The translations under genes were made by a program, and so were the position numbers. From the IMG/VR virus record IMGVR_UViG_3300045988_093645: a DNA stretch of 35,704 bases. One strand, 5' to 3'. Shown piece by piece: positions 1 through 33,132 of this stretch. The stretch's first letter is position 1. Every line of letters begins with the position of its first letter. A model generated the notes under the pieces. The model saw nothing but the letters and a program-made list of their open reading frames with translations, was not told the origin of the DNA and searched no databases. This stretch comes from a virus.

Positions 1-55
1 AACACACATTGCACATTAAATACTATATCCGGTATATGGACGATTTTATAATTCT
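1..55. repeat. Terminal overlap: nt 1-55 are identical to nt 35650-35704 (circular or permuted contig, unique length 35649 bp)
   Basis: Base-by-base comparison of the two window ends. Confidence 0.97.
43..55. repeat. Left copy of the 13-bp target-site duplication ATTTTATAATTCT flanking the IS
   Basis: Identical 13-mer at 1778-1790. The preceding bases differ (g42 vs c1777). Confidence 0.85.
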
Positions 56-1777
56 GCTTGAATGAAAAAGTAAATTCTACATTCTAATATACCTTGATTT
101 TATGCGGGATTTAATTCTATTTTCGGAGATATACAACTTGATTTTTTTAGTATATAATGCTTTTATACGGCATAAACAGCATAGTTTTTTGCATGATAAA
201 AGGACATCTGGAAATAGTGTGCAGGACTAAATTCCACATGTCTGTTGGAAAGACTAAATTCTATGCAATGAAACTTGCCTGTGCCTGTATTGTTATTATT
301 ATTTTATTAATGCTGGTATCAATGTGACTTCATCGGCTGGTATCTCTGCTAATCCTAATGCTTTATGAAGTCTGTTATCCAGCAGGAGACGGGATACTTC
401 ATATGGACTGTGTCCATTGAGGCTGTCCCGTTTTTCGCTGTTGATATGATTTAATAACAGCAGCGTTGTCTTGTCTGTCATTTTTTCAAAGCTTGTTCCT
501 TTTGGAAGGACATACCTTATATATTCATGATTCTTTTCAAGAGCACCTTTTTGATCAGAACGGTTGGGATCACAATAATAAATACGTGTGCGTACTTCTC
601 CATTTTTGCTATATTCCAGACTTTGCCGGTCCTGAAATTCATGTCCGTTGTCCGTAAGTATCACTTCGAAAAGTTTCTGGAACAGTTCAATTCCAAGTAA
701 TTCTGTTAAATGATCAAAAATCCTAGTTACTTCTTTCTGGGTCTGTTCTTCTAAAAGAAACATAAGCATAAGGCTACAGTTTCGAAAGAACATAGTCAGA
801 AAGCAGGGACTGGTACCTTTTGCTCCTTCAACAGTATCCATTTCGACTACATAAACAGATTTGTTCGCTGCGATATATTCCAGAAATTCTTTATAGCTCC
901 TATCTTTTCGGAAACTTCTGTCTTTAAGGCTGGCAGTAGTTTTTCTTTTCCGCTGCTTGTATACCACTTTACGGCGCAGATCTATGTTTCTGGCTTGAAA
1001 AACGCCACGGTCTATGTAAGAATATATGGTTCTTCTGGAACAGGCGATCTCATCAGCATGAGATGCGTAGATGTGGGCAATAGATTGTCCTTTTTTGAGA
1101 AGCGGTGACAACAGGATGTCCAGTTTCTGTATACTTTCCGGTGTCTGATTGATTCCTTCTCTGCTTGTGGTCCTAAGGGCTTCATAGGTGTCCTGGGCGT
1201 ATTTTGAAGAATAAATCTTTTTGTCCATCATGCAATTCGTTTTCTTGCTGCATCCATTGCACACATAAGGCGGTTTATTTAATTTCTCACATTCTCTTGG
1301 TTTATAAAATTTACAGACATCGCTGCATCTGAATTTTCTGCAGAGGACACATTTGCGCCGACATTCATTATCACCGCACATATGCATGACATTGCATATA
1401 TTTGTCCGCGGCTTTGAACTATCATAATTGTTTGCACAGGGAATAGGGGCAAATGCATCTGCGCTTCTTTCCCTGATAATGGAATGACGTCTGATTTCTT
1501 TGGATATGGTACTTGGATCCTTGCTTAATTCTATTGCAATACTTCTAAATGAATCACCGTTATTTAAATGCTGTTCGATTATAATACGTGCAGATAAGTC
1601 AAGATGTTTTTGGTTACCTTTTGGTCTTCCTGTATTCATTTTATCCTCCTTCTGCACAGGCAGGGGATCATCTGCAGTAGTATTTTATAAAAAGAAGAAG
1701 GAAAAATCCATGCAGAAGTAATTTCTACAGGTATAGAATTTACTCTTGCAAGGTAGAATTTAAAAATACATTTAACC
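56..1777 (-). mobile_element. 1722-bp insertion sequence (IS30-family-like) inserted in the DGR reverse transcriptase gene
   Basis: Bounded by the 13-bp direct repeat. Imperfect ~28-bp terminal inverted repeats start exactly at 56 and 1777 (GCTTGAATGAAAAAGTAAATTCTAC vs revcomp GGTTAAATGTATTTTTAAATTCTAC). Deleting 56-1790 restores the RT reading frame. The element is visibly more AT-rich than its flanks and holds the only minus-strand gene. Confidence 0.9.
299..1639 (-). CDS. DDE transposase, IS30-family-like, with a Cys-rich insert between two HTH regions
   Basis: N-terminal HTH (SIAIELSKDPSTISKEIRRH) and a second HTH (SRRTIYSYIDRG). DDE signature VEMDTVEG, LTDNGHEF, DQKGALEKNHEYIRYVLPKG. 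AAGGAGG lies 6 nt upstream of the second ATG (MNTGRPKG), so the start is placed at 1639 rather than 1657. Confidence 0.8.
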   Translation of the reverse strand: MNTGRPKGNQKHLDLSARIIIEQHLNNGDSFRSIAIELSKDPSTISKEIRRHSIIRERSADAFAPIPCANNYDSSKPRTNICNVMHMCGDNECRRKCVLCRKFRCSDVCKFYKPRECEKLNKPPYVCNGCSKKTNCMMDKKIYSSKYAQDTYEALRTTSREGINQTPESIQKLDILLSPLLKKGQSIAHIYASHADEIACSRRTIYSYIDRGVFQARNIDLRRKVVYKQRKRKTTASLKDRSFRKDRSYKEFLEYIAANKSVYVVEMDTVEGAKGTSPCFLTMFFRNCSLMLMFLLEEQTQKEVTRIFDHLTELLGIELFQKLFEVILTDNGHEFQDRQSLEYSKNGEVRTRIYYCDPNRSDQKGALEKNHEYIRYVLPKGTSFEKMTDKTTLLLLNHINSEKRDSLNGHSPYEVSRLLLDNRLHKALGLAEIPADEVTLIPALIK

Positions 1778-1790
1778 ATTTTATAATTCT
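1778..1790. repeat. Right copy of the 13-bp target-site duplication
   Basis: Identical to 43-55. Confidence 0.85.
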
Positions 1791-5367: not shown

Positions 5368-5880
5368 ATGGGATTATTTAAAAATCTATTCTCTTCAAAG
5401 AAACCGGAGACGCAGACACCGCCGCCGCAGGTGGAGCCAGTAAAGCCAAAAGGGATTATCAAGACACAACGCCATAAACTGGATAATGTGGAAACTCACA
5501 TGAAAGAAATTATGGAGTTAGCAGAGAAAAACGAGGATTACAAACTTTCAAAAAAAGTACTAATTGAAGAGGGCCGAGAAGATGAAAAAATTTACGAATA
5601 TGAACTTTCCGAAACCGCTACATTTTGTATAGGGGGGGGTGGAGAGATACAAGTATTTGTACGTGATACCCATATTGGCGATATAAAGAAAGGCAGCAGG
5701 GCAAAGGTTAAAAAACTAATTGAAAGCGGAACTATAAAAAGCATTTGTACGGAGATTTCCGGCGGAGATTATAAAAAACTCCACGACACCGGGGACGGCT
5801 ACGTGTTGGACGAATTAGAGGACGCTTTCAGCATTACCATAGAAATCACTTACCGGGAAGCGATTGAAAAAGAGAATTAA
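5368..5880 (+). CDS. Hypothetical protein (170 aa), moron-like unit with its own promoter and terminator
   Basis: Preceded by the GAAAGCGAGGAATTTAACATG cassette. No family confidently recognised. Confidence 0.6.
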   Translation: MGLFKNLFSSKKPETQTPPPQVEPVKPKGIIKTQRHKLDNVETHMKEIMELAEKNEDYKLSKKVLIEEGREDEKIYEYELSETATFCIGGGGEIQVFVRDTHIGDIKKGSRAKVKKLIESGTIKSICTEISGGDYKKLHDTGDGYVLDELEDAFSITIEITYREAIEKEN

Positions 5881-5904
5881 CAACAATAGCAGAAAAAAGG
5901 CGAT

Positions 5905-5938
5905 AAGGCGGCACGGACGTTTCCGTTGCCGTCCTTTT
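5905..5938 (+). terminator. Terminator-like hairpin after the 170-aa gene
   Basis: AAGGCGGCACGG / CCGTTGCCGTCCTT, a 12-bp stem with two bulges, followed by TTTT. Confidence 0.5.
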
Positions 5939-5944
5939 CCGCTA

Positions 5945-6994
5945 ATGGGGGACGATTTCGTGGGAAAACATTTAAGCCAAAATGATAGAATTAAAATGGA
6001 AACTATGCTTAATTCCGGGCACAAAGTAACGGAGATAGCGGAATATTTGCACGTTCACAGAAGCACTATTTACCGGGAAAAGAAAAGGGGAGAGTACACC
6101 CATAGAAATAGCGACTATACCGAGGAAATACGGTATAGCAGCGATTTAGGGCAGAAAACCCACGATTGGAACGCCCAGGGGAAAGGCCGTAGTTTAAAAA
6201 TCGGAAATGACTTACCATTAGCAGAATACATAGAAGAAAAAATTGTAAATGACAAATATAGCCCGGAAGCCGCATTGGCCGCAGTAGCCGAAAGTGGAAT
6301 TGAATTTGAAACCACTATAAGCGTGAGAACGCTATACAGATATATAGACAATGGGATTTTTCTTAAATTAACAAATAAAGATTTACCAGTGAAAGGGAAG
6401 AAAAAGAAACATAATAAGAAAGTAAAAGTGCAGAAGAGAGCCGCCGCCGGGGAAAGCATAGAGAACCGCCCGGACGAAGTAAAAGACCGGGAAATTTTTG
6501 GACACTGGGAAATGGACACGGTAAAGGGAAAGCAGGGAGTAACAAAGTCATGTATGCTTGTACTTACAGAGAGAAAAACAAGAGATGAAATAATAGTGAA
6601 GTTGCCGGACCAAAAGGCGGCCAGTGTAGTAGAAGCCATTGACAAATTAGAAAGAAAATGGGGAGATATGTTCACAAAAGTATTTAGAAGCATTACCGTG
6701 GACAACGGCGTGGAGTTTTCAGACTATGAGGGGTTAGAACGGTCCATATTACATGAGGGAGAAAAAAGGACTTTCCTTTTTTATTGCCACCCATATAGTA
6801 GTTGGGAGAGGGGAACAAACGAGAATAATAACCGACTTATCCGCCGCCACATACCAAAAGGGGAAGATTTTGACGAGAAGCAGGACCGGGACATTGAATA
6901 TATAGAAAATTGGATAAACAACTATCCAAGGGGGATTTTAGGCTTTAAGACATCCGCCCAACTCTTTGAAGAGGAAATAAGAAAACTGGCTTAG
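5945..6994 (+). CDS. IS30-family DDE transposase (or integrase-like protein); no terminal inverted repeats detected around it
   Basis: HTH (KVTEIAEYLHVHRSTIYREKKRG), second HTH (RTLYRYIDNG), catalytic HWEMDTV, TVDNGVEF, SSWERGTNENNNRLIRRHIPKG. The start is placed at MGDDF because the upstream part of the track ORF overlaps the terminator hairpin. GTG at 5960 is an alternative start. Confidence 0.85.
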   Translation: MGDDFVGKHLSQNDRIKMETMLNSGHKVTEIAEYLHVHRSTIYREKKRGEYTHRNSDYTEEIRYSSDLGQKTHDWNAQGKGRSLKIGNDLPLAEYIEEKIVNDKYSPEAALAAVAESGIEFETTISVRTLYRYIDNGIFLKLTNKDLPVKGKKKKHNKKVKVQKRAAAGESIENRPDEVKDREIFGHWEMDTVKGKQGVTKSCMLVLTERKTRDEIIVKLPDQKAASVVEAIDKLERKWGDMFTKVFRSITVDNGVEFSDYEGLERSILHEGEKRTFLFYCHPYSSWERGTNENNNRLIRRHIPKGEDFDEKQDRDIEYIENWINNYPRGILGFKTSAQLFEEEIRKLA

Positions 6995-7925: not shown

Positions 7926-8348
7926 ATGGAAAAGATACCGGAATGGATTTATGCACCAACAAACTTTTCCACGGAACTGGAAAAGACATTTGAAGCAGTA
8001 GAAAAAGCCCTGGGCTTTAAACTGTTTATTTGGCAGAAAACATTTATTGCCAACACAACATGTAGACGGAGTGGAAGAACCACGGCAGAAATATTACGGG
8101 CTTTATTGAACGTATCAAAATCGCCCTTAGATTACACCAAACCAGTAGCGGACCACATGGAGCGGTTTTATAGAGAAGAGACACGGGAAATAAAGACAAA
8201 ACTGGACGCCGCCGGAATACCGACAAGGACCGTTTTCTTTTCCTGGCAGGAGAAACAGAAATATTACAGTGAAGCGGAAGCCGGGCAGCAGGAGAAAAAT
8301 ACAATACCGGAATTTATGCCGGAATATGGAAAGAGGATATGGCTATGA
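7926..8348 (+). CDS. Hypothetical early protein (140 aa)
   Basis: The conserved cassette at 7908-7928 places the start at 7926 (MEKIPEW) rather than 7899. Confidence 0.55.
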   Translation: MEKIPEWIYAPTNFSTELEKTFEAVEKALGFKLFIWQKTFIANTTCRRSGRTTAEILRALLNVSKSPLDYTKPVADHMERFYREETREIKTKLDAAGIPTRTVFFSWQEKQKYYSEAEAGQQEKNTIPEFMPEYGKRIWL

Positions 8349-9514
8349 AAACCACGGCAGAAATGACACTGGGAAGTCTTTTTGACGGAATAGCCGGGTT
8401 CCCATTGGCGGCCAGGCGGCAGGGTATCAAAACGGTATGGGTAAGCGAGATAGAGCCGGATTGTATAGACATAGCAAAGCGGCACTTCCCGGAAGCCCTA
8501 CAACTGGGAGACATTACGCAGATAGACGGGGCAAAAATCCCCGTTGTGGATATTATCAGTTTTGGAAGCCCTTGCCAGGATTTGAGCGTTGCCGGAAAAC
8601 AGACGGGGCTTGACGGTTCCCGTTCCGGCTTATTCATGGAAGCCGTGAGAATAACCAGGGAAATGAGGGAAAAGACAAATGGACAATATCCAAAATATAT
8701 CATTTGGGAAAATGTGGCCGGGGCTTTTTCAAGCAATAAAGGCGAGGACTTCCGCCGGGTCCTGGAAGAAATCACACAGAGCAACATTTCAATGCCTAAA
8801 AGTGGGAAATGGGCAACCGCCGGAATGGTTGGAAATGAGGGACCAGGGGGGGACGTTCAGTGTACCGCATGGCGATTACTTGACGCTCAATTTTGGGGAG
8901 TGCCCCAACGTAGAAAACGTATCTACCTTGTCAATGATTTTGGAAACGGACGTGCCGGACAAATACTTTTTGAGTGCGAAAGCGTGTTGGGGTATCATTC
9001 GCAGGGCAGAGACGAGGAACAAGGAAATTCCGGTAATTCTGAAAATAGCCTTACTGGAACGGATTGCAGAGGAATGGCAGAGGACGCAGACGGACAAATG
9101 AAATTAGATTTTGGCCGCACCGCAGACAGAATTTATATAAACGCCAAAACAAGCCCAACGCTTATGTCTCAACACCGCCCGGCGGTAGTGTATGGATATA
9201 CACAAAGCGGTTATGGAGAGTTTAAAGAGGGCGTGGGCACATTGAAAAAGAGCCGAGGGGCAGCAGGGGGCGGAAGCGAAACCATTGCCGTGATAATGGA
9301 ACGGATTGCCGCAGCGGTTAAATACCGGGTCCGCCGCCTTACGCCGCTTGAATGTGAACGCCTGGACGGGTTCCCGGACGAATGGACAAGGTACGGGGCA
9401 AGCGGCAAAGAAATGTCCGACAATGCCCGTTACATGGCACTGGGAAATAGTATAGCGGTTCCATGTGCGGAGCGTGTTTTTATCGGCATAAAGAAAGCAG
9501 AAAGCGAGGAATGA
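8339..9514 (+). CDS. dcm: DNA (cytosine-5)-methyltransferase, orphan
   Basis: Motif I LFDGIAG, motif IV GSPCQDLS, motif VI ENV, motif VIII QRRKRIYLV, motif X GNSIAVP. No adjacent restriction endonuclease. Confidence 0.9.
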   Translation: MAMKTTAEMTLGSLFDGIAGFPLAARRQGIKTVWVSEIEPDCIDIAKRHFPEALQLGDITQIDGAKIPVVDIISFGSPCQDLSVAGKQTGLDGSRSGLFMEAVRITREMREKTNGQYPKYIIWENVAGAFSSNKGEDFRRVLEEITQSNISMPKSGKWATAGMVGNEGPGGDVQCTAWRLLDAQFWGVPQRRKRIYLVNDFGNGRAGQILFECESVLGYHSQGRDEEQGNSGNSENSLTGTDCRGMAEDADGQMKLDFGRTADRIYINAKTSPTLMSQHRPAVVYGYTQSGYGEFKEGVGTLKKSRGAAGGGSETIAVIMERIAAAVKYRVRRLTPLECERLDGFPDEWTRYGASGKEMSDNARYMALGNSIAVPCAERVFIGIKKAESEE

Positions 9515-26427: not shown

Positions 26428-29400
26428 GTGGCAAATAGCAAAATCAGAGGAATTACTATTGAGATTGGCGGCGATACTACAAAACTGGACAAGGCCCTGG
26501 GAAGCGTTGATAAAAAGGTAAAGGGAACGCAAGTTGAACTTAGAGAAGTAAACAAACTTTTAAAAATCGACCCAACCAACACGGAAATGTTGGCACAAAA
26601 GCAGGCCCTTTTGACAGACGCTATTTCTGAAACCAAGGAAAAACTGGATATTCTGAAAAATGCAGAAAGCCAGGTGCAAGAGCAATTTAAAAAAGGCGAG
26701 GTTTCAGAAGAGCAGTACAAAGCCTTAAAAAGAGAACTGGGAAGAACAGAGGTAGAACTTGCAAATTTAGAGGAAGGGGCCAGGCAGACAGACACGGCCA
26801 TTGAAGAGTTAGGGAAATCTTCCAAACTTTCCGGGGACGAACTGAAAGAAGCAGAGGAAAAGGCCGGAGATTTTAAAGAAACCCTGGGAGATTTGGCCGG
26901 AAAGGCAGAAACGGCAGCCAAAGCCCTGGGGGGCGGTTTTGTTGCCGCCGCTACATATGCCACGAAATTTGAAACAGATTGCGACAAGGCTTTAAATACC
27001 GTTATTACGCAGACGGGGGCGGCAGACACAGAAGTTGAGGGATTGGAAGAAACCCTTTTAAGCATTTATAAAGATAATTTTGGTGAGGACATTAACGACA
27101 TTGCATTAGCAATGTCCGCAGTTAAGCAGCAGACCGGACAGACCGGGAAAGAACTGAAAAACACAACGGAAAACGCTATTTTAATGCGTGATACCTTTGA
27201 TATTGATGTGAACGAAAGCATTAGGGGCGTAAATGCCATGATGAAACAATTCGGCATATCATCAGAGGAAGCATACAACCTTTTAGCCCAGGGGGCACAA
27301 AAGGGATTGAACCAAAACGGAGATTTGGCGGACCAGTTGGCGGAATATTCCGTTTACTATGCAGACATGGGACTGTCAGCAGAGGAAGCATTTAACATGA
27401 TAGCCAACGGAGCCAAAAACGGCACTTTCCAGATAGACTATTTGAATGACGCCGTGAAAGAGTTTGGTATCAGAGCAAAAGACGGAACATCAGACGAAGC
27501 ATTTAAACAGTTGGGCCTTGACGTGGACGATTTAAAAACAAAGTTTGCACAAGGCGGAGAGGGGGCAAAAGAAGCATTTAAAACCGTAAATGAAGCCCTT
27601 TTCTCATGTGATGACGAAGTACAAAGAAACCTTTTGGGTGTGGCAATGTACGGAACCAAGTGGGAAGATTTGGGAGAGGATGCCATACGTGCCTTAGTGG
27701 ACACACAAGGGGAAATATCGGCAACCAATGACGCACTGGGAACGATAAACGAGAATAAATACAATGACCTGGGAAATCAGTTTGAAGAGTTAGGCAGAAA
27801 CCTTAAAACGGACCTTGTAAAGCCGATAGGCGAGGAACTAAAGCCAGTAATAAGTGACGTAATCAAAGAAGTAAAAGGAAAGATACCGGAAGTTAAAACA
27901 CTTGTGCTTGCGGTAGTGAGCAAGGTAAAAGATTTTATTTCTTTTATGTCGAGGAACGGGACACAAATTATTTCTATTATTGCCGGAATTGCCGCCGGAA
28001 TGTTGGCGTGGAATGTGGTAACTATGATACGAGGGTTAGTGGCGGCGATAAAAGAATGGAAAGCAACAACCGAGGGCGTAACCATAGCACAGAAAATTCT
28101 AAATACAGTAATGGCCGCTAATCCGATAGGCATTGTTATAACGGTGGTGGCCGCACTGGTGGCCGCATTAGTAACGCTTTTTGCAACCAACGAAGATTTT
28201 AGAAACAAAGTAATAGCGGTATGGGAAGCAGTAAAAGAAGCGGCGTCAAAAGTTTTCGGTGCAATAGCGGACTTTTTTACCGTTACGATACCAAACGCCT
28301 TTAACGGTTTTATAAATTTCATAAAAAGCAACTGGCAGGCCCTTTTATTATTGATTGTAAACCCGTTTGCCGGGGCTTTTAAACTTCTATATGATAATTG
28401 CGGTGCTTTCCGTGAATTTGTGGACAATTTTGTGCAAAACATCAAACAATTTTTTCAAAATTTGTGGAACGGCATTGTATCCATATTCCAGGGCGTGGGT
28501 CAATGGTTCATTGCGAGATTTACGGAAGCCTATAACGGCGTGACGGGTGTATTTGCGGCAATCGGCCAGTGGTTCGGTGCCCGGTGGCAGGATATAAAGA
28601 ACGCCCTGGCAACGGTGGCGTCCTGGTTCCTCACTATGTTTACCAACGCCTATACCAACGTGAAAAACGTTTTTGCCTTAATCGGCCAGTGGTTCGGCGC
28701 CCGGTGGCAGGATATAAAGAACGCCCTGGCAACGGTGGCGTCCTGGTTCCTCACTATGTTTACCAACGCCTATACCAACGTGAAAAACGTTTTTGCCTTA
28801 ATCGGCCAGTGGTTCGGCGCCCGGTGGCAGGATATAAAGAACGCCCTGGCAACGGTGGCGTCCTGGTTCCTCACTATGTTTACCAACGCCTACACCAATG
28901 TAAAAAATGTTTTCTCTGCAATCGGTTCCTGGTTCGGTGCAAGGTGGACGGAAATAAAAACAGCCCTTTCCGCCGTCCCGTCATGGTTCGGTACGCAGTT
29001 TCAAAACGCATGGACGAATATTAAAAACGCCTTTGCCAATGTGACTTCTTTCTTTTCCGGTTTGTGGGAAAAAATCAAAGGCTGTTTTGTAAATGTGGGC
29101 GTGAAAATCGGTTCGGCGGTTGGGGGCGCTTTTAAATCAGCAATAAACAGTTGCCTTTCTACCATAGAGGGCGTTGTAAATAAGTTTATCGGAATGATAA
29201 ACGGCGTTATTGATGTCATCAACGAGATACCGGGCGTTTCCCTGGGCAAGATAGGCACGCTTTCCTTGCCGAGACTGGCAAAGGGCGGCGTATTGAAAGA
29301 GGGAACCGCCATGGTAGCGGAAGCAGGACCGGAACTTCTTAGCATGGTAAACGGAAAGGCAGTTGTAACGCCGCTTTCCGGCAGTGCAAAGAACCAGGCC

Positions 29401-29541
29401 ATGGAAAACGCAGGAAAAGGCGGCGGCGGGTATGTTCAGAATGTGAACATCACAAGCCCCAAGGCATTAAGCCCGTATGAGATAGCGAGACAGACCAGGT
29501 TACAGACAAGAAGCATGATTTTGGCAGTACAAAGGGGGTAA
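26428..29541 (+). CDS. Tail tape measure protein
   Basis: 1037 aa with a coiled-coil N-terminus, a hydrophobic middle and internal repeats. Position before Dit. Confidence 0.9.
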   Translation: MANSKIRGITIEIGGDTTKLDKALGSVDKKVKGTQVELREVNKLLKIDPTNTEMLAQKQALLTDAISETKEKLDILKNAESQVQEQFKKGEVSEEQYKALKRELGRTEVELANLEEGARQTDTAIEELGKSSKLSGDELKEAEEKAGDFKETLGDLAGKAETAAKALGGGFVAAATYATKFETDCDKALNTVITQTGAADTEVEGLEETLLSIYKDNFGEDINDIALAMSAVKQQTGQTGKELKNTTENAILMRDTFDIDVNESIRGVNAMMKQFGISSEEAYNLLAQGAQKGLNQNGDLADQLAEYSVYYADMGLSAEEAFNMIANGAKNGTFQIDYLNDAVKEFGIRAKDGTSDEAFKQLGLDVDDLKTKFAQGGEGAKEAFKTVNEALFSCDDEVQRNLLGVAMYGTKWEDLGEDAIRALVDTQGEISATNDALGTINENKYNDLGNQFEELGRNLKTDLVKPIGEELKPVISDVIKEVKGKIPEVKTLVLAVVSKVKDFISFMSRNGTQIISIIAGIAAGMLAWNVVTMIRGLVAAIKEWKATTEGVTIAQKILNTVMAANPIGIVITVVAALVAALVTLFATNEDFRNKVIAVWEAVKEAASKVFGAIADFFTVTIPNAFNGFINFIKSNWQALLLLIVNPFAGAFKLLYDNCGAFREFVDNFVQNIKQFFQNLWNGIVSIFQGVGQWFIARFTEAYNGVTGVFAAIGQWFGARWQDIKNALATVASWFLTMFTNAYTNVKNVFALIGQWFGARWQDIKNALATVASWFLTMFTNAYTNVKNVFALIGQWFGARWQDIKNALATVASWFLTMFTNAYTNVKNVFSAIGSWFGARWTEIKTALSAVPSWFGTQFQNAWTNIKNAFANVTSFFSGLWEKIKGCFVNVGVKIGSAVGGAFKSAINSCLSTIEGVVNKFIGMINGVIDVINEIPGVSLGKIGTLSLPRLAKGGVLKEGTAMVAEAGPELLSMVNGKAVVTPLSGSAKNQAMENAGKGGGGYVQNVNITSPKALSPYEIARQTRLQTRSMILAVQRG
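28561..28920 (+). repeat. Three near-identical tandem 120-bp (40-aa) repeats inside the tape measure gene, flanked by diverged copies (28441-28560 and 28921-29040)
   Basis: Copies 1 and 2 differ at one base (28578 T vs 28698 C). Copy 3 is identical to copy 2 until about 28892. Confidence 0.95.
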
Positions 29542-29547
29542 GGGGAA

Positions 29548-30498
29548 ATGTCAGACATTAAAGTGGTTTGCACCAGTGACAAAAACGTGTCCCTTACCTT
29601 TACCTGGGGCGATTTTACACCGTTCCACCTGGTAGACATTGAGGGAATTTACGGCATTGAAAGCAACGTGGTAACGAGTGAGAACACGACCACGGACGGC
29701 AGCACCTACCAGGGAGCCACCGCAAAGGAAAGAAACATTGTCATTACCGTGGAAATGGACGGAAATTATAAAGAAAACCGTAACCTTTTATACCGCACAT
29801 TCCCCATAAAACGGACGGGAACAATGCAGTACATAGAGGACGGAGAAGCCAAGGCCATAGAATATGAGGTTGAAAGCGTCATACCGGGAGCCACAACGGG
29901 CGTGGTGCGTGATTATACCATTTCCCTTAAATGCACGGACCCGTATTTTAAGGACCTGGCAGACATTGAAGTGGTTATGGCGTCATGGGTAAGTGACTTC
30001 TATTTTCCGGCGTGCTTCCCGGAAGAGGGCCGCATATTTGGACACCGTGAAGCGGATTTGGTAAAGGAAATTGAAAACGAGAGCGGAGCGGACAACATAG
30101 GTATTGTGGTTATATTCCGGGCAGACGGAGCCGTGAAGAACCCGGCCATTTACCACACGGAAAGCGGAGAATTTACCAAGGTTGGATATTTGGACAATGA
30201 TTTTATCATGTCATCCGGTCAGTATGTGATTATAAATACCTACACCGGGAAGAAAAACGCCTACCTTTTGGACGGCGTGACCCAGGCGGAGATTGAGAAC
30301 CACAAAGACAATTACGGGGTCATTGACTGGGACACCGTTATTGAAAAATACGGGACGGTAATAAACGAATATCTGGACGAGGACGGGGAATTTATCCAGT
30401 TGCAGGACGGAACCAACACATTGACATACACGGCGGACGAGGGCACCAATTACCTTTCCGTGTCGGTATATTACAGAATTTCATATTTGGGGGTGTGA
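29548..30498 (+). CDS. Distal tail protein (Dit-like)
   Basis: Synteny directly after the tape measure gene, and size. Confidence 0.6.
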   Translation: MSDIKVVCTSDKNVSLTFTWGDFTPFHLVDIEGIYGIESNVVTSENTTTDGSTYQGATAKERNIVITVEMDGNYKENRNLLYRTFPIKRTGTMQYIEDGEAKAIEYEVESVIPGATTGVVRDYTISLKCTDPYFKDLADIEVVMASWVSDFYFPACFPEEGRIFGHREADLVKEIENESGADNIGIVVIFRADGAVKNPAIYHTESGEFTKVGYLDNDFIMSSGQYVIINTYTGKKNAYLLDGVTQAEIENHKDNYGVIDWDTVIEKYGTVINEYLDEDGEFIQLQDGTNTLTYTADEGTNYLSVSVYYRISYLGV

Positions 30499-30500
30499 TT

Positions 30501-31547
30501 ATGGAAATACACGTTTATGACCGGAACCTTAGACGCCTGGGACATATCGAAAATCACACGTCTTTACAGTGGCACCGCAAATATTACGAATGTGGCACGT
30601 TTGAGTTACATTGTCCGGTAACGGCGGAAAATTTACGGCTATTGCAACCGGGGAACATTATAACCAAGGGGGACAACAAGCAGGAAGCCGCCGTGATACG
30701 TGGGGACCAGGCAGAAGAGGAAAGCACCCTGGTAAATGAGATTACCAGGAACGGCTTTTTTCTTCCCGTCTACCTGGGGGACCGGTTGACGGGTCCGCAG
30801 TTTAACTTTAACGGAACCGTGGAAGCGGCCATGCACTACATGATTGGACGCATGGAGCAAATACCGCTTTTACAGATAGGGGCGACGACCGGGGACACCA
30901 CAAAAGTGCAATTCCAGGCAACTTATAAGAATGTCCTGGAATACTTCACAAAGTTGGCGAAGTTTGCAGAAATAGGTTTCCGTATCGTGCCGGACTTCAA
31001 AAAAAAGACCATGACCTTTGAAACTTACAAAGGCGTGGACCGTACCCAGGCACAAGGGGAAAATCCCAGGGTCATATTTTCAGAGAGTTACGACAATCTA
31101 AACCAGGCAAAACATAATTACAGTGACGCAACCTATAAGACCAAGGTAATTGTGGGCGGAGCCGGGGACGGCCTGGCCCGTATCTTTGTAACCGTGGGCG
31201 GCGGAACCGGGTTTGATTTACGGGAAGTGTTTCTGGACGCAAAGGACATAAACAAAGAAGCCCTTACGGACGCCGAGTATTTAGAAGCCCTTAAAACAAG
31301 GGGGCAGGAGTTTCTTAACGAAAACAAGATATTTGAAAACTTTGAAGCGGAAGCGGAAGCAGATGTAAATTTTACCTACGGAAAAGACTATGACCTGGGG
31401 GACGTTGTGACCGTAAAGAAGAAAAAGTGGAACACCGCACAGAACCTTAGAATTACGGAACTTTGCGAGGTTTACGAATATGGGGGTATGTATGTGGTGC
31501 CTACTTTTGGGGACGCCCTACCCACAACAATAAAATGGGACGAATAG
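30501..31547 (+). CDS. Siphovirus Gp37-like tail/baseplate protein
   Basis: N-terminus MEIHVYDRNLRRLGHIENHTSLQWHRKYYECGTFELH is typical of the ReqiPepy6 Gp37-like family. Start set at the ATG just after the Dit stop. Confidence 0.55.
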   Translation: MEIHVYDRNLRRLGHIENHTSLQWHRKYYECGTFELHCPVTAENLRLLQPGNIITKGDNKQEAAVIRGDQAEEESTLVNEITRNGFFLPVYLGDRLTGPQFNFNGTVEAAMHYMIGRMEQIPLLQIGATTGDTTKVQFQATYKNVLEYFTKLAKFAEIGFRIVPDFKKKTMTFETYKGVDRTQAQGENPRVIFSESYDNLNQAKHNYSDATYKTKVIVGGAGDGLARIFVTVGGGTGFDLREVFLDAKDINKEALTDAEYLEALKTRGQEFLNENKIFENFEAEAEADVNFTYGKDYDLGDVVTVKKKKWNTAQNLRITELCEVYEYGGMYVVPTFGDALPTTIKWDE

Positions 31548-31569
31548 AGGAAAGGAGAGGAAAAAGACC

Positions 31570-32631
31570 ATGGCAGTAAGAGGATTTTTTTACAATGCTA
31601 CCAACCTAAATGATAAAGAGCATATGTATAACGGCCAGGACATGAACGAGGACAAAGCCCCGTTCTATAAAGAGGGCGTTGCATACGGTCATTTGCAAGT
31701 GACGGCACCGGGCGGCACCATGGAAGTGACAGTGGACGGCGGAACCCGGACCGGGTACGCATATATCAATTTACATACTATCCACAATACCGCACCGTTG
31801 ACCCTTACATTGAGCCAGGCAAGCGGAACGCTTCCAAGGATTGACCGCATTGTATTAAGGAATGACGAAACCGAAAGAAAGCCGAGTATTTACGTCTTAG
31901 AGGGTGCTTTTTCAAGCAATCCGCAGGCCCCGGAACTGGTTAATAATGATGTTATCCAGGAAAAGAGCCTGGCCCGTGTCTATGTGGCCGCCGGAGCGGT
32001 TGAGATTACCCAGGCAGACATTACAGACGAAAGGCCGGACAAGACGGTTTGCGGCTTTATCGGCTCACAGTTTGAAGAACTGGACTTTTCCCAGTGGTCC
32101 GCCCAGTTTAACAAATGGTTTTCAAGCGAGAAAAAGGCGGTGGAAAAAGACCATGCCGCTTTCATCAAAGAGTACACCGCTATGGTGCAACAGTTTCAAA
32201 CGGAACGGACGGCACAGTGGGACGAATGGTTTGCGGCAAAGCAGGAGCAGCTTGCCGGGGACGTGGCCGGAAAATTGCAGTTGCAAATTGACGGATTAAG
32301 AACCAAGGTTCACAACATGGCCCACAAAGTAAATGTTGACTACTTACTGGAAACAATCCAGGCGGCGGTCACGGTAACGCTCACGAACATTACAACGGGA
32401 ACGGTGCAGACGGCAGCAATCACAGAAAGCGGCATAGGCTTTTACATCACGGAAGCCGGGGACTATACCCTGGAAACCAATATGGAAAGCGTTATGGTAA
32501 CGCCAAAGCGGCTTTCCATAGATTATATGGACCTTATGCACACAACCACGGTTTCCTTGCGTGAGGGCACCAATATGGCCTATATCGGCAATTACATGGG
32601 AACGTATTTATTAAAAGAAAGTGAGGTATAA
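31570..32631 (+). CDS. Tail fibre / baseplate upper (BppU-like) protein with a central coiled coil
   Basis: Synteny. Coiled region QWSAQFNKWFSSEKKAVEKDHAAFIKEY... Confidence 0.4.
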   Translation: MAVRGFFYNATNLNDKEHMYNGQDMNEDKAPFYKEGVAYGHLQVTAPGGTMEVTVDGGTRTGYAYINLHTIHNTAPLTLTLSQASGTLPRIDRIVLRNDETERKPSIYVLEGAFSSNPQAPELVNNDVIQEKSLARVYVAAGAVEITQADITDERPDKTVCGFIGSQFEELDFSQWSAQFNKWFSSEKKAVEKDHAAFIKEYTAMVQQFQTERTAQWDEWFAAKQEQLAGDVAGKLQLQIDGLRTKVHNMAHKVNVDYLLETIQAAVTVTLTNITTGTVQTAAITESGIGFYITEAGDYTLETNMESVMVTPKRLSIDYMDLMHTTTVSLREGTNMAYIGNYMGTYLLKESEV

Positions 32632-32634
32632 CAC

Positions 32635-33132
32635 ATGAAAGGATTTCCTAAAGTAATCAAAACCAAGTCCGACCTGGTAAACACCTTTAAACTGGTGCAG
32701 AAAAAGAAATTGAAAAAGGAAGATTGGTTGGCAGCAGTTGAAAAACTGGAAAATCAGAACTGGATTATGTGCCCGGTCATTGAACTGTCAGAGGACAGAA
32801 AGACGGTAAAAATTATGTTTTGTGCAGAGGTGGCAGCAGGGCAGAAAATCAAGAATGGAGCCGTTTACCCTACCGTCCAGACCGTTGAAACGGTAGAAGT
32901 GGAGAAAGATACCGCCGAAGCGGAAAACGCCGCCACAGAGGGCCAGGAAGCCGCCACAGAGGGCACCACGGCAGCAGGGCAGAACAACACAATTTCTTTT
33001 ACGGTGCTTACCCTTTCAAAAGCCGTAAACATTGGCACGGTAACAATCGGTATTCCGGCAGCGGTTACGTTCTATGACCGTATGGGTATCACGGAAGAGG
33101 AAGTGGAAGAAATGAAAGGAGCGTTGGCATAA
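32635..33132 (+). CDS. Hypothetical tail-associated protein (165 aa)
   Basis: Synteny. Stop overlaps the start of the DGR target gene. Confidence 0.4.
   Translation: MKGFPKVIKTKSDLVNTFKLVQKKKLKKEDWLAAVEKLENQNWIMCPVIELSEDRKTVKIMFCAEVAAGQKIKNGAVYPTVQTVETVEVEKDTAEAENAATEGQEAATEGTTAAGQNNTISFTVLTLSKAVNIGTVTIGIPAAVTFYDRMGITEEEVEEMKGALA

Follow-up and report, generated by a model that had tools for sequence, protein, structure and literature searches.

The phage genome in IMG/VR virus record IMGVR_UViG_3300045988_093645 (35,704 nucleotides, analysed over its whole length and referred to as the window) carries an insertion sequence (IS) of the IS30 family at positions 56-1777, within the reverse transcriptase (RT) gene of a diversity-generating retroelement (DGR). 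With a probability of about 85%, this is a recent insertion into an RT gene that had already been inactivated by a frameshift. Bases 1-55 of the window are identical to 35650-35704; owing to this 55-bp terminal overlap, which finishes exactly where the left target-site duplication does, the contig is circular, with 35,649 bp of unique sequence. Since it was assembled as a circle, the RT gene spans the contig ends, starting at 35018 and continuing across the junction to 2157.

The first lesion in RT is a +1 G insertion at 35587-35591 (+), where a run of five G (G5) is found versus four G (G4) in close relatives (the site was read in 11 of the contigs L001-L029). In the closest relatives, RT reads through in one frame without exception (12/12). 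In the window, the open reading frame (ORF) from ATG 35018 reads ...GIPVGEPYKPVICQCVRQPPG and then reaches a stop codon at 35639-35641, so that the +1 frameshift cuts off an N-terminal fragment of 207 amino acids (35018-35641, +) that lacks the YMDD motif. The middle part of RT (35592-35704, +; NLTSQLFANVYG...YMDDFIIL) lies in the next frame, with YMDD at 35682-35693, equivalent to 33-44. Across the contig junction this frame reads FIILLE and ends at TGA 63-65 within the IS; the C-terminal part (1789-2157, +; LSQDLNQLKEW...LVPA, then stop) is separated from YMDD by the element. A preliminary description of the window had placed the split four codons after YMDD, with a stop at 63-65 and resumption of the frame at 1789, and translation agrees on all three points. 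Its further proposal, that deleting 56-1790 rebuilds an uninterrupted RT, does not hold. The frame is broken 98 nt upstream of the IS insertion, and because start codon and YMDD lie in different frames, excision of the IS alone would leave a frameshifted gene with the stop codon at 35639-35641 still in place. When one G is removed, RT becomes a clean 350-amino acid ORF carrying a single private substitution, which is synonymous, and for this reason both lesions appear to be young. The reconstructed protein matches RVT_1 (2.6e-17) and is 98-99% identical to intact RTs found in the same cassette of relatives. As the truncation precedes YMDD, the RT activity would most likely have been lost; nothing points to a functional split enzyme.

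The order of the two events follows from parsimony. A contig devoid of the IS, L216 (ENA ERZ28576554, HMP sample SAMN00083300), agrees with window positions 29018-35704 at 100% identity (6687 nt) and then runs into 1791-1832. It already has G5, and it shares with the window the template repeat (TR) and the variable region (VR) of the DGR, including one non-adenine change. Because this otherwise identical, IS-free contig already has G5, the frameshift would have come first and the IS second, into a gene already broken; the reverse order is less simple, since it needs precise excision of the element plus loss of one copy of the duplication. The existence of such a contig also speaks for a very recent and probably still polymorphic insertion. 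When ENA and Logan assemblies were queried with the exact protein, the 207-amino acid product was encountered in identical form on at least 13 contigs elsewhere, from different samples; among the matches listed, all ten contigs (10/10), L216 included, have G5 and lack the IS. In IMG/VR and JGI metagenomes, the G5 context was sought as an exact match and not encountered; the allele came to light only by way of the protein query. The exact look-up of the target protein of the window returned "not on record", although the protein is encoded by L216, and this was treated as an index gap.

These data bear directly on the view of the preliminary description that it was the IS which knocked out a working DGR RT, so that its precise removal would restore the enzyme. 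The split four codons after YMDD, a frame that is continuous from the G-run onward once the element has been excised, and ten adenine-specific substitutions in VR, indicative of a DGR that was once active, would all fit such a course of events. However, the frame of the start codon had been interrupted upstream, and G5 together with the same VR is present in the IS-free L216. The view is largely refuted already and is now considered quite improbable. The case may serve as a worked example that statements of the type "an IS knocked out gene X" need a check of the whole ORF, and that public assemblies can provide the empty-site allele in the absence of reads.

The element itself is an IS30-family insertion sequence of 1722 bp (56-1777, -), as judged from a profile match and from copies elsewhere with the same ends. 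Its GC content is 37.4%, versus 46.8% for the remaining window. Terminal inverted repeats are located at 56-80 on the transposase-distal side (GCTTGAATGAAAAAGTAAATTCTAC; an end conserved in L083, L084, and L203) and at 1753-1777 on the transposase-proximal side (reverse complement GGTTAAATGTATTTTTAAATTCTAC); they are imperfect, with 18 of 25 terminal positions matching, and these ends are kept in other copies of the IS. The only ORF within the 1722 bp lies between them (299-1639, -), in agreement with the organization of the IS30 family, in which inverted repeats of 20-30 bp border a single gene. It encodes a transposase of 446 amino acids from ATG, comprising an HTH_38 domain, a Cys-rich segment, and a putative DDE domain. 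The protein scores 111.5 bits (E 5.8e-32) with the NCBIfam equivalog model NF033563 (transpos_IS30; cutoff 80), its N-terminus corresponds to Pfam PF13936, HTH_38 (1.4e-11, amino acids 16-58 of the 452-amino acid ORF), and relatives at 40-46% identity are labelled "IS30 family transposase" by PGAP. Between the helix-turn-helix and the catalytic core, 12 Cys residues are found at amino acids 68-136. Candidate catalytic residues, assigned by motif inspection, are D268 (EMDTV), D330 (TDNGHEF), and E368 (ALEKNHE), with spacings of 61 and 37; these putative residues align with an IS30-like protein of the phage itself, and the D-to-E spacing is longer by 4 than in canonical DD(33)E. The Pfam domain rve did not reach E 0.01 on the transposase. 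The earlier account of an element with imperfect terminal inverted repeats and a transposase on the minus strand is thereby corroborated, its DDE triad being a candidate one from motif inspection.

In comparison with the IS30 family, whose prototype is IS30 of E. coli, the element of the window shares a single transposase, putatively of the DDE type, that begins with HTH_38 and passes the equivalog model, imperfect inverted repeats of approximately 25 bp at its ends, and the occurrence in multiple copies in host genomes. It differs by its length of 1722 bp, as opposed to approximately 1.0-1.25 kb in classic members, by the extra Cys-rich segment ahead of the catalytic core, and by the apparent D-to-E spacing of 37 instead of 33. 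The motif TAAATTC(T/C)A occurs at 71, 228, and 255 on the plus strand and at 1734 and 1754 on the complement, that is, in both subterminal regions and inverted between the ends; by sequence, these copies may represent multiple transposase-binding sites. A promoter-like site at 1759-1787 (+) combines a -35 element (TTTAAA / TTAAAA) in the IS end with a -10 element (TATAAT) in the duplicated target. It faces the RT remnant and the lysis genes, and its designation is a consensus match only.

The insertion site bears the marks of transposition. The 13-mer ATTTTATAATTCT is present at 43-55 and at 1778-1790, plus the copy in the terminal overlap, while 0.00 matches would be expected by chance according to shuffled sequences; the perfect 13-bp direct repeat around an AT-rich element of 1722 bp, as initially described, is confirmed. 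At the empty site of relatives, the 13-mer is found in a single copy. The contigs L002, L216, and L218 are identical to the excised window across the junction (L002 over the 80 nt around it), and in L005 colinearity with the excised sequence extends over 8.9 kb at 98.4%. When the reconstructed RT was used as a query, 276 relatives were retrieved from IMG/VR. Because the duplication, the family-typical ends, and the empty site in relatives all agree, the insertion is regarded as genuine, and it represents a true transposition into the DGR RT and not a misassembly.

The alternative would be an assembly chimera, in which the IS resides outside the phage and the phage ends have been joined through a repeat of the host genome. 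Joins of this kind through the same IS do occur in public metagenomes. In the contigs L204, L206, L211, and L212, the flanks of the element are mismatched, shared in different combinations, and devoid of a duplication, so that they look like repeat-induced joins or recombinants. The window is set apart from them by its perfect duplication, which answers the concern, raised at the outset, that 56-1777 might be a chimeric join. Moreover, its flanks are adjacent bases of one gene that overlap by exactly 13 bp, as they do at independent insertions of this IS, and the ends of the element agree to the base with other copies. Given that the 13-mer is not expected by chance and that an overlap of 13 bp is far too short to mislead an assembly at k=55, a chimeric origin is very unlikely, more so than inactivation of a working RT by the IS.

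Copies of the IS were traced to genomes of Blautia and Ruminococcus sp. The contig L081 from Blautia intestinihominis stands alone with exactly 1722 bp and matches IS positions 1-1722 at 98.7%; fragments at high coverage occur in Blautia wexlerae, and a complete embedded copy is present in Ruminococcus sp. AM22-13. The exact transposase protein was recorded in 155 blocks of public assemblies. By megablast, the IS had no match among PLSDB plasmids and INPHARED phages. In the Ruminococcus genome (L083), the termini of the element are identical (GGTTAAATG...CATTCAAGC) and the 13-bp direct repeat next to them is another one, TCTAACTCATCAC; a metagenome contig from ENA (L203) has an IS with the same ends between copies of the 13-bp repeat TACTGCTTATAAA. 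Three different flanking 13-mers are thus available, as would be characteristic of a mobile element. In relatives at 55-63% protein identity (from Kineothrix, Lachnospiraceae AC2029, Butyrivibrio, and others), repeats of 13-16 bp adjoin the conserved termini. In the metagenome contigs L205, L206, L207, L209, and L210, the IS often adjoins a related IS30-like element of 437 amino acids, and L204-L212 are IS pile-ups and probable chimeric joins.

From the 13-bp repeats of L083 and L203 and the 13-16 bp of relatives it follows that duplication of this length reflects the mode of transposition of the clade. It is a property of the IS clade and no anomaly of the event in the window. The preliminary description was right in noting that 13 bp exceed the 2-3 bp typical of IS30, which are found neither in the window nor in L083 or L203, although its treatment as an oddity is not justified in view of the clade-wide values. 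Other IS30-family members go further. The duplications of IS1630 of Mycoplasma fermentans measure 16-26 bp (PMC3317919) and those of ISMfau-2 19-29 bp (PMC11062135), and since accepted members reach 16-29 bp, a 13-bp duplication is no bar to membership in the family. The element of the window resembles these two in duplicating far beyond 2-3 bp; the length is variable in the Mycoplasma elements, whereas it is nearly fixed at 13 bp here (13-16 bp in relatives). Recognition of a Lachnospiraceae clade of IS30-family elements of approximately 1.7 kb, with a Cys-rich insert and duplications of about 13 bp, should aid the annotation of insertion sequences in gut metagenomes, and the duplication length also helps in the detection of insertions by their duplications in such data.

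A scenario can be drawn in which the phage started out with a DGR of the type known from Bordetella phage BPP-1, with an Mtd-like target gene containing VR, an accessory variability determinant (Avd), TR, and RT. In a first step, slippage in the GGGG run would have added one G, giving rise to G5 and to an RT that ends at 207 amino acids, before YMDD. In a second step, the 1722-bp IS30-family element, multi-copy in Blautia-like hosts, would have transposed into the dead RT gene, most likely during the prophage state. A staggered cut of 13 bp at the target would lead to the usual duplication of ATTTTATAATTCT, and either ordinary cut-and-paste or copy-out transposition would account for the product.

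The ends of the assembled contigs give a hint that both alleles still exist side by side. In a de Bruijn graph with k=55, branching vertices are expected at shared 55-mers if both alleles are present, and a break caused by multiplicity of the IS alone is expected 55 nt inside the element. The contig L216 ends at the 55-mer 1778-1832, the first 55-mer on the right side that is common to the filled and the empty allele; at both of its ends, the window has the 55-mer finishing at base 55, the last one on the left that is common to both. If assemblers behave in this way, the filled and empty alleles may well coexist in one sample, which suggests a polymorphic insertion.

Several points weigh against a recent insertion into an already dead gene. 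Coexistence of the alleles and the true length of the G-run in the source sample were read from assembled contigs and not from reads. The IS-bearing allele rests on one contig, because exact searches with both filled junctions in IMG/VR, and with the left one in GTDB genomes and JGI metagenomes, yielded no match. Furthermore, G5 occurs on at least three RT haplotypes (L213-L222 versus L001-L076, alignment column 570), each accompanied by a near-identical G4 twin. Since G4 and G5 haplotypes have the same sequence surrounding the run, G5 could equally be recurrent, by slippage, or of a single origin and then moved by short-tract recombination, which slightly weakens arguments built on lineages. 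The 100% identity of L216 is independent of such simple lineage arguments.

The occurrence of G5 on several haplotypes with different VRs could also be taken to mean that the G5 RT is not dead, and that the IS is the final lesion of the enzyme encoded in cis. Low-level +1 slippage on GGG-G would be one route, as the sequence of the site, GGGGG, would let tRNA-Gly shift by one base downstream and pair again without mismatch. Provision of RT in trans by a co-resident relative would be another, trans-complementation of a DGR RT reportedly being established for BPP-1. That indels can be corrected during translation is generally known (PMC5009743). Yet the slip site is followed by GAA, without any known stimulatory context, and the different VRs can be explained by independent origins or recombination, considering that every G5 haplotype has its near-identical G4 twin. 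In addition, the two G5 pairs of zero flanking divergence have identical VRs, and many other plain loss-of-function alleles of RT exist in the family. Residual activity of this kind counts as a further point on the opposing side, albeit an improbable one, on a par with inactivation of a working RT by the IS; insertion into an RT gene already inactivated by the frameshift is preferred.

The remaining cassette has the parts of a DGR. The target gene (33132-34232, +) encodes a protein with the second domain of Mtd (3e-32) plus an FGE-sulfatase/C-type-lectin-like domain (1.1e-07); its 3' end contains VR (34096-34223, +), which ends 9 nt before the stop codon. It is followed by the gene for Avd (34286-34684, +; bAvd, 1e-23) and by TR (34723-34850, +). 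All the hallmarks of a DGR are present, namely TR and VR with adenine mismatches, an RT beside TR, Avd, and a target of the C-type-lectin type with a C-terminal VR, with the exception of an intact RT frame; the +1 G ends the ORF at 35641, and the IS parts YMDD from the C-terminal third of the enzyme. Over 128 bp, TR and VR differ at 11 positions, ten of which are TR adenines, while the other one is a synonymous C-to-A change at 34199. With 10 of 11 differences at TR adenines, the DGR must have homed in the past, and the initial observation of A-derived substitutions in VR is upheld. The relatives all have different VRs, changed mostly at adenines, and every G4 relative possesses a VR of its own.

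In the preliminary description, this had been condensed to a recently active DGR that is now frozen by the IS. Past homing and the lack of an intact RT are in line with the present data, but the IS is not the cause. Two candidate indications of freezing were rejected. Interpretation of the non-adenine C-to-A change at 34199 as drift after freezing is not tenable, as relatives with intact RTs have 0-4 such mismatches. Two G5 pairs share a VR (the window and L216; L214 and L215); taken as proof of freezing, this is underpowered, because both pairs show zero divergence elsewhere as well.

With BPP-1 (Mtd/Avd/TR/Brt), the DGR of the window shares the same parts in the same order, that is, a target with VR, bAvd, TR, and an RT with YMDD, and also the second domain of Mtd, the C-type-lectin-like fold, the position of VR at the 3' terminus of the target, the adenine-specific mismatches, and a GC-rich hairpin with a GAAA loop just downstream of VR. 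The RT of the window, in contrast, is doubly disrupted by frameshift and IS, and the presumed host belongs to the Gram-positive Lachnospiraceae of the gut and is not Bordetella. The putative hairpin is located at 34240-34262 (GGGGTGGGC GAAA GCCCAACCCC), 8 nt past the stop codon of the target gene. In BPP-1, a stem-loop downstream of VR aids homing, and the hairpin of the window resembles it. As for insertion sequences within phages, IS983, another member of the IS30 family, is annotated ("insertion sequence:IS983") inside the genome of the Lactococcus prophage bIL311. Its protein is only 26% identical to that of the window IS and its target is different; the window IS has hit a DGR gene of accessory nature, and a circular assembly of the phage genome is still obtained. 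In the literature searched, no publication describing an IS within the RT of a DGR was found, an absence that is no proof of novelty.

Decay of RT is commonplace in this phage family, and the IS is one more loss. The codon of W239 (window equivalent 1819-1821) is converted to a stop codon (TGA, TAG, and TGA, respectively) in L223, L225, and L226, three divergent lineages whose RTs are 99%, 83%, and 89% identical to that of the window and whose ORFs are otherwise intact and in frame. In L224 / P0064, a C5 frameshift (window equivalent about 1792-1795) lies directly after FIILS, beside the site hit by the IS. Further losses of function are due to a stop codon at R304 in L004 and to a 4-nt insertion at codon about 109 in L030. 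In P0102, an in-frame deletion of 45 amino acids has removed YMDD. The YMDD region is bracketed by a near-identical direct repeat of 12 nt (8-19 / 1860-1871; ATTGCACATTAA / ATTGCACATAAA), and this deletion is exactly as expected from recombination between the two copies. A related RT from Acetatifactor aquisgranensis is spread over two contigs of high coverage (L137 / L138, with the overlapping residues 1-190 and 166-350); either a break in the assembly or a further disruption of RT may underlie this split.

It is a rather doubtful, though less remote, proposition that shut-off of the DGR is recurrent and possibly selected, with the G4/G5 run acting as an off switch of low rate that would in principle be reversible. 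If true, the G-run switch would freeze a successful variant of the receptor-binding protein, and through the IS a shut-off that could still be reversed would become irreversible. Irrespective of this, inactivation of the DGR RT in many independent ways within a very common gut-phage family bears on the question of how often DGRs are switched on in nature.

Regarding the phage, genes for terminase, portal, major head protein/capsid, tape measure, and endolysin were identified in the window, which represents the circular genome of a temperate, siphovirus-like phage, presumably of Lachnospiraceae. An RT that is 98% identical to that of the window is contained in a 197-kb contig of a Lachnospiraceae metagenome-assembled genome, from which it is concluded that the phage is temperate and that phage and IS overlap in their hosts. 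The clusters of intact RTs of this phage family comprise thousands of member sequences, and accordingly the family is common in the gut, and among its alleles G5 is rare.

A second IS30-family transposase gene of the phage is situated at 5864-6994 (+); its product scores 237 bits with NF033563 and is 32% identical to the transposase of the IS. Inverted repeats flanking the gene were looked for and none were found, and its position is conserved in the relatives L213 and L214. On these grounds its interpretation as a second IS was rejected, and it may more likely encode the integration enzyme of the phage itself. Finally, a run of eight G (5632-5639) is present in the plus-strand ORF 5368-5880 and a run of seven G (8846-8852) in the methyltransferase ORF 8339-9514, likewise on the plus strand; both tracts are possibly prone to slippage.

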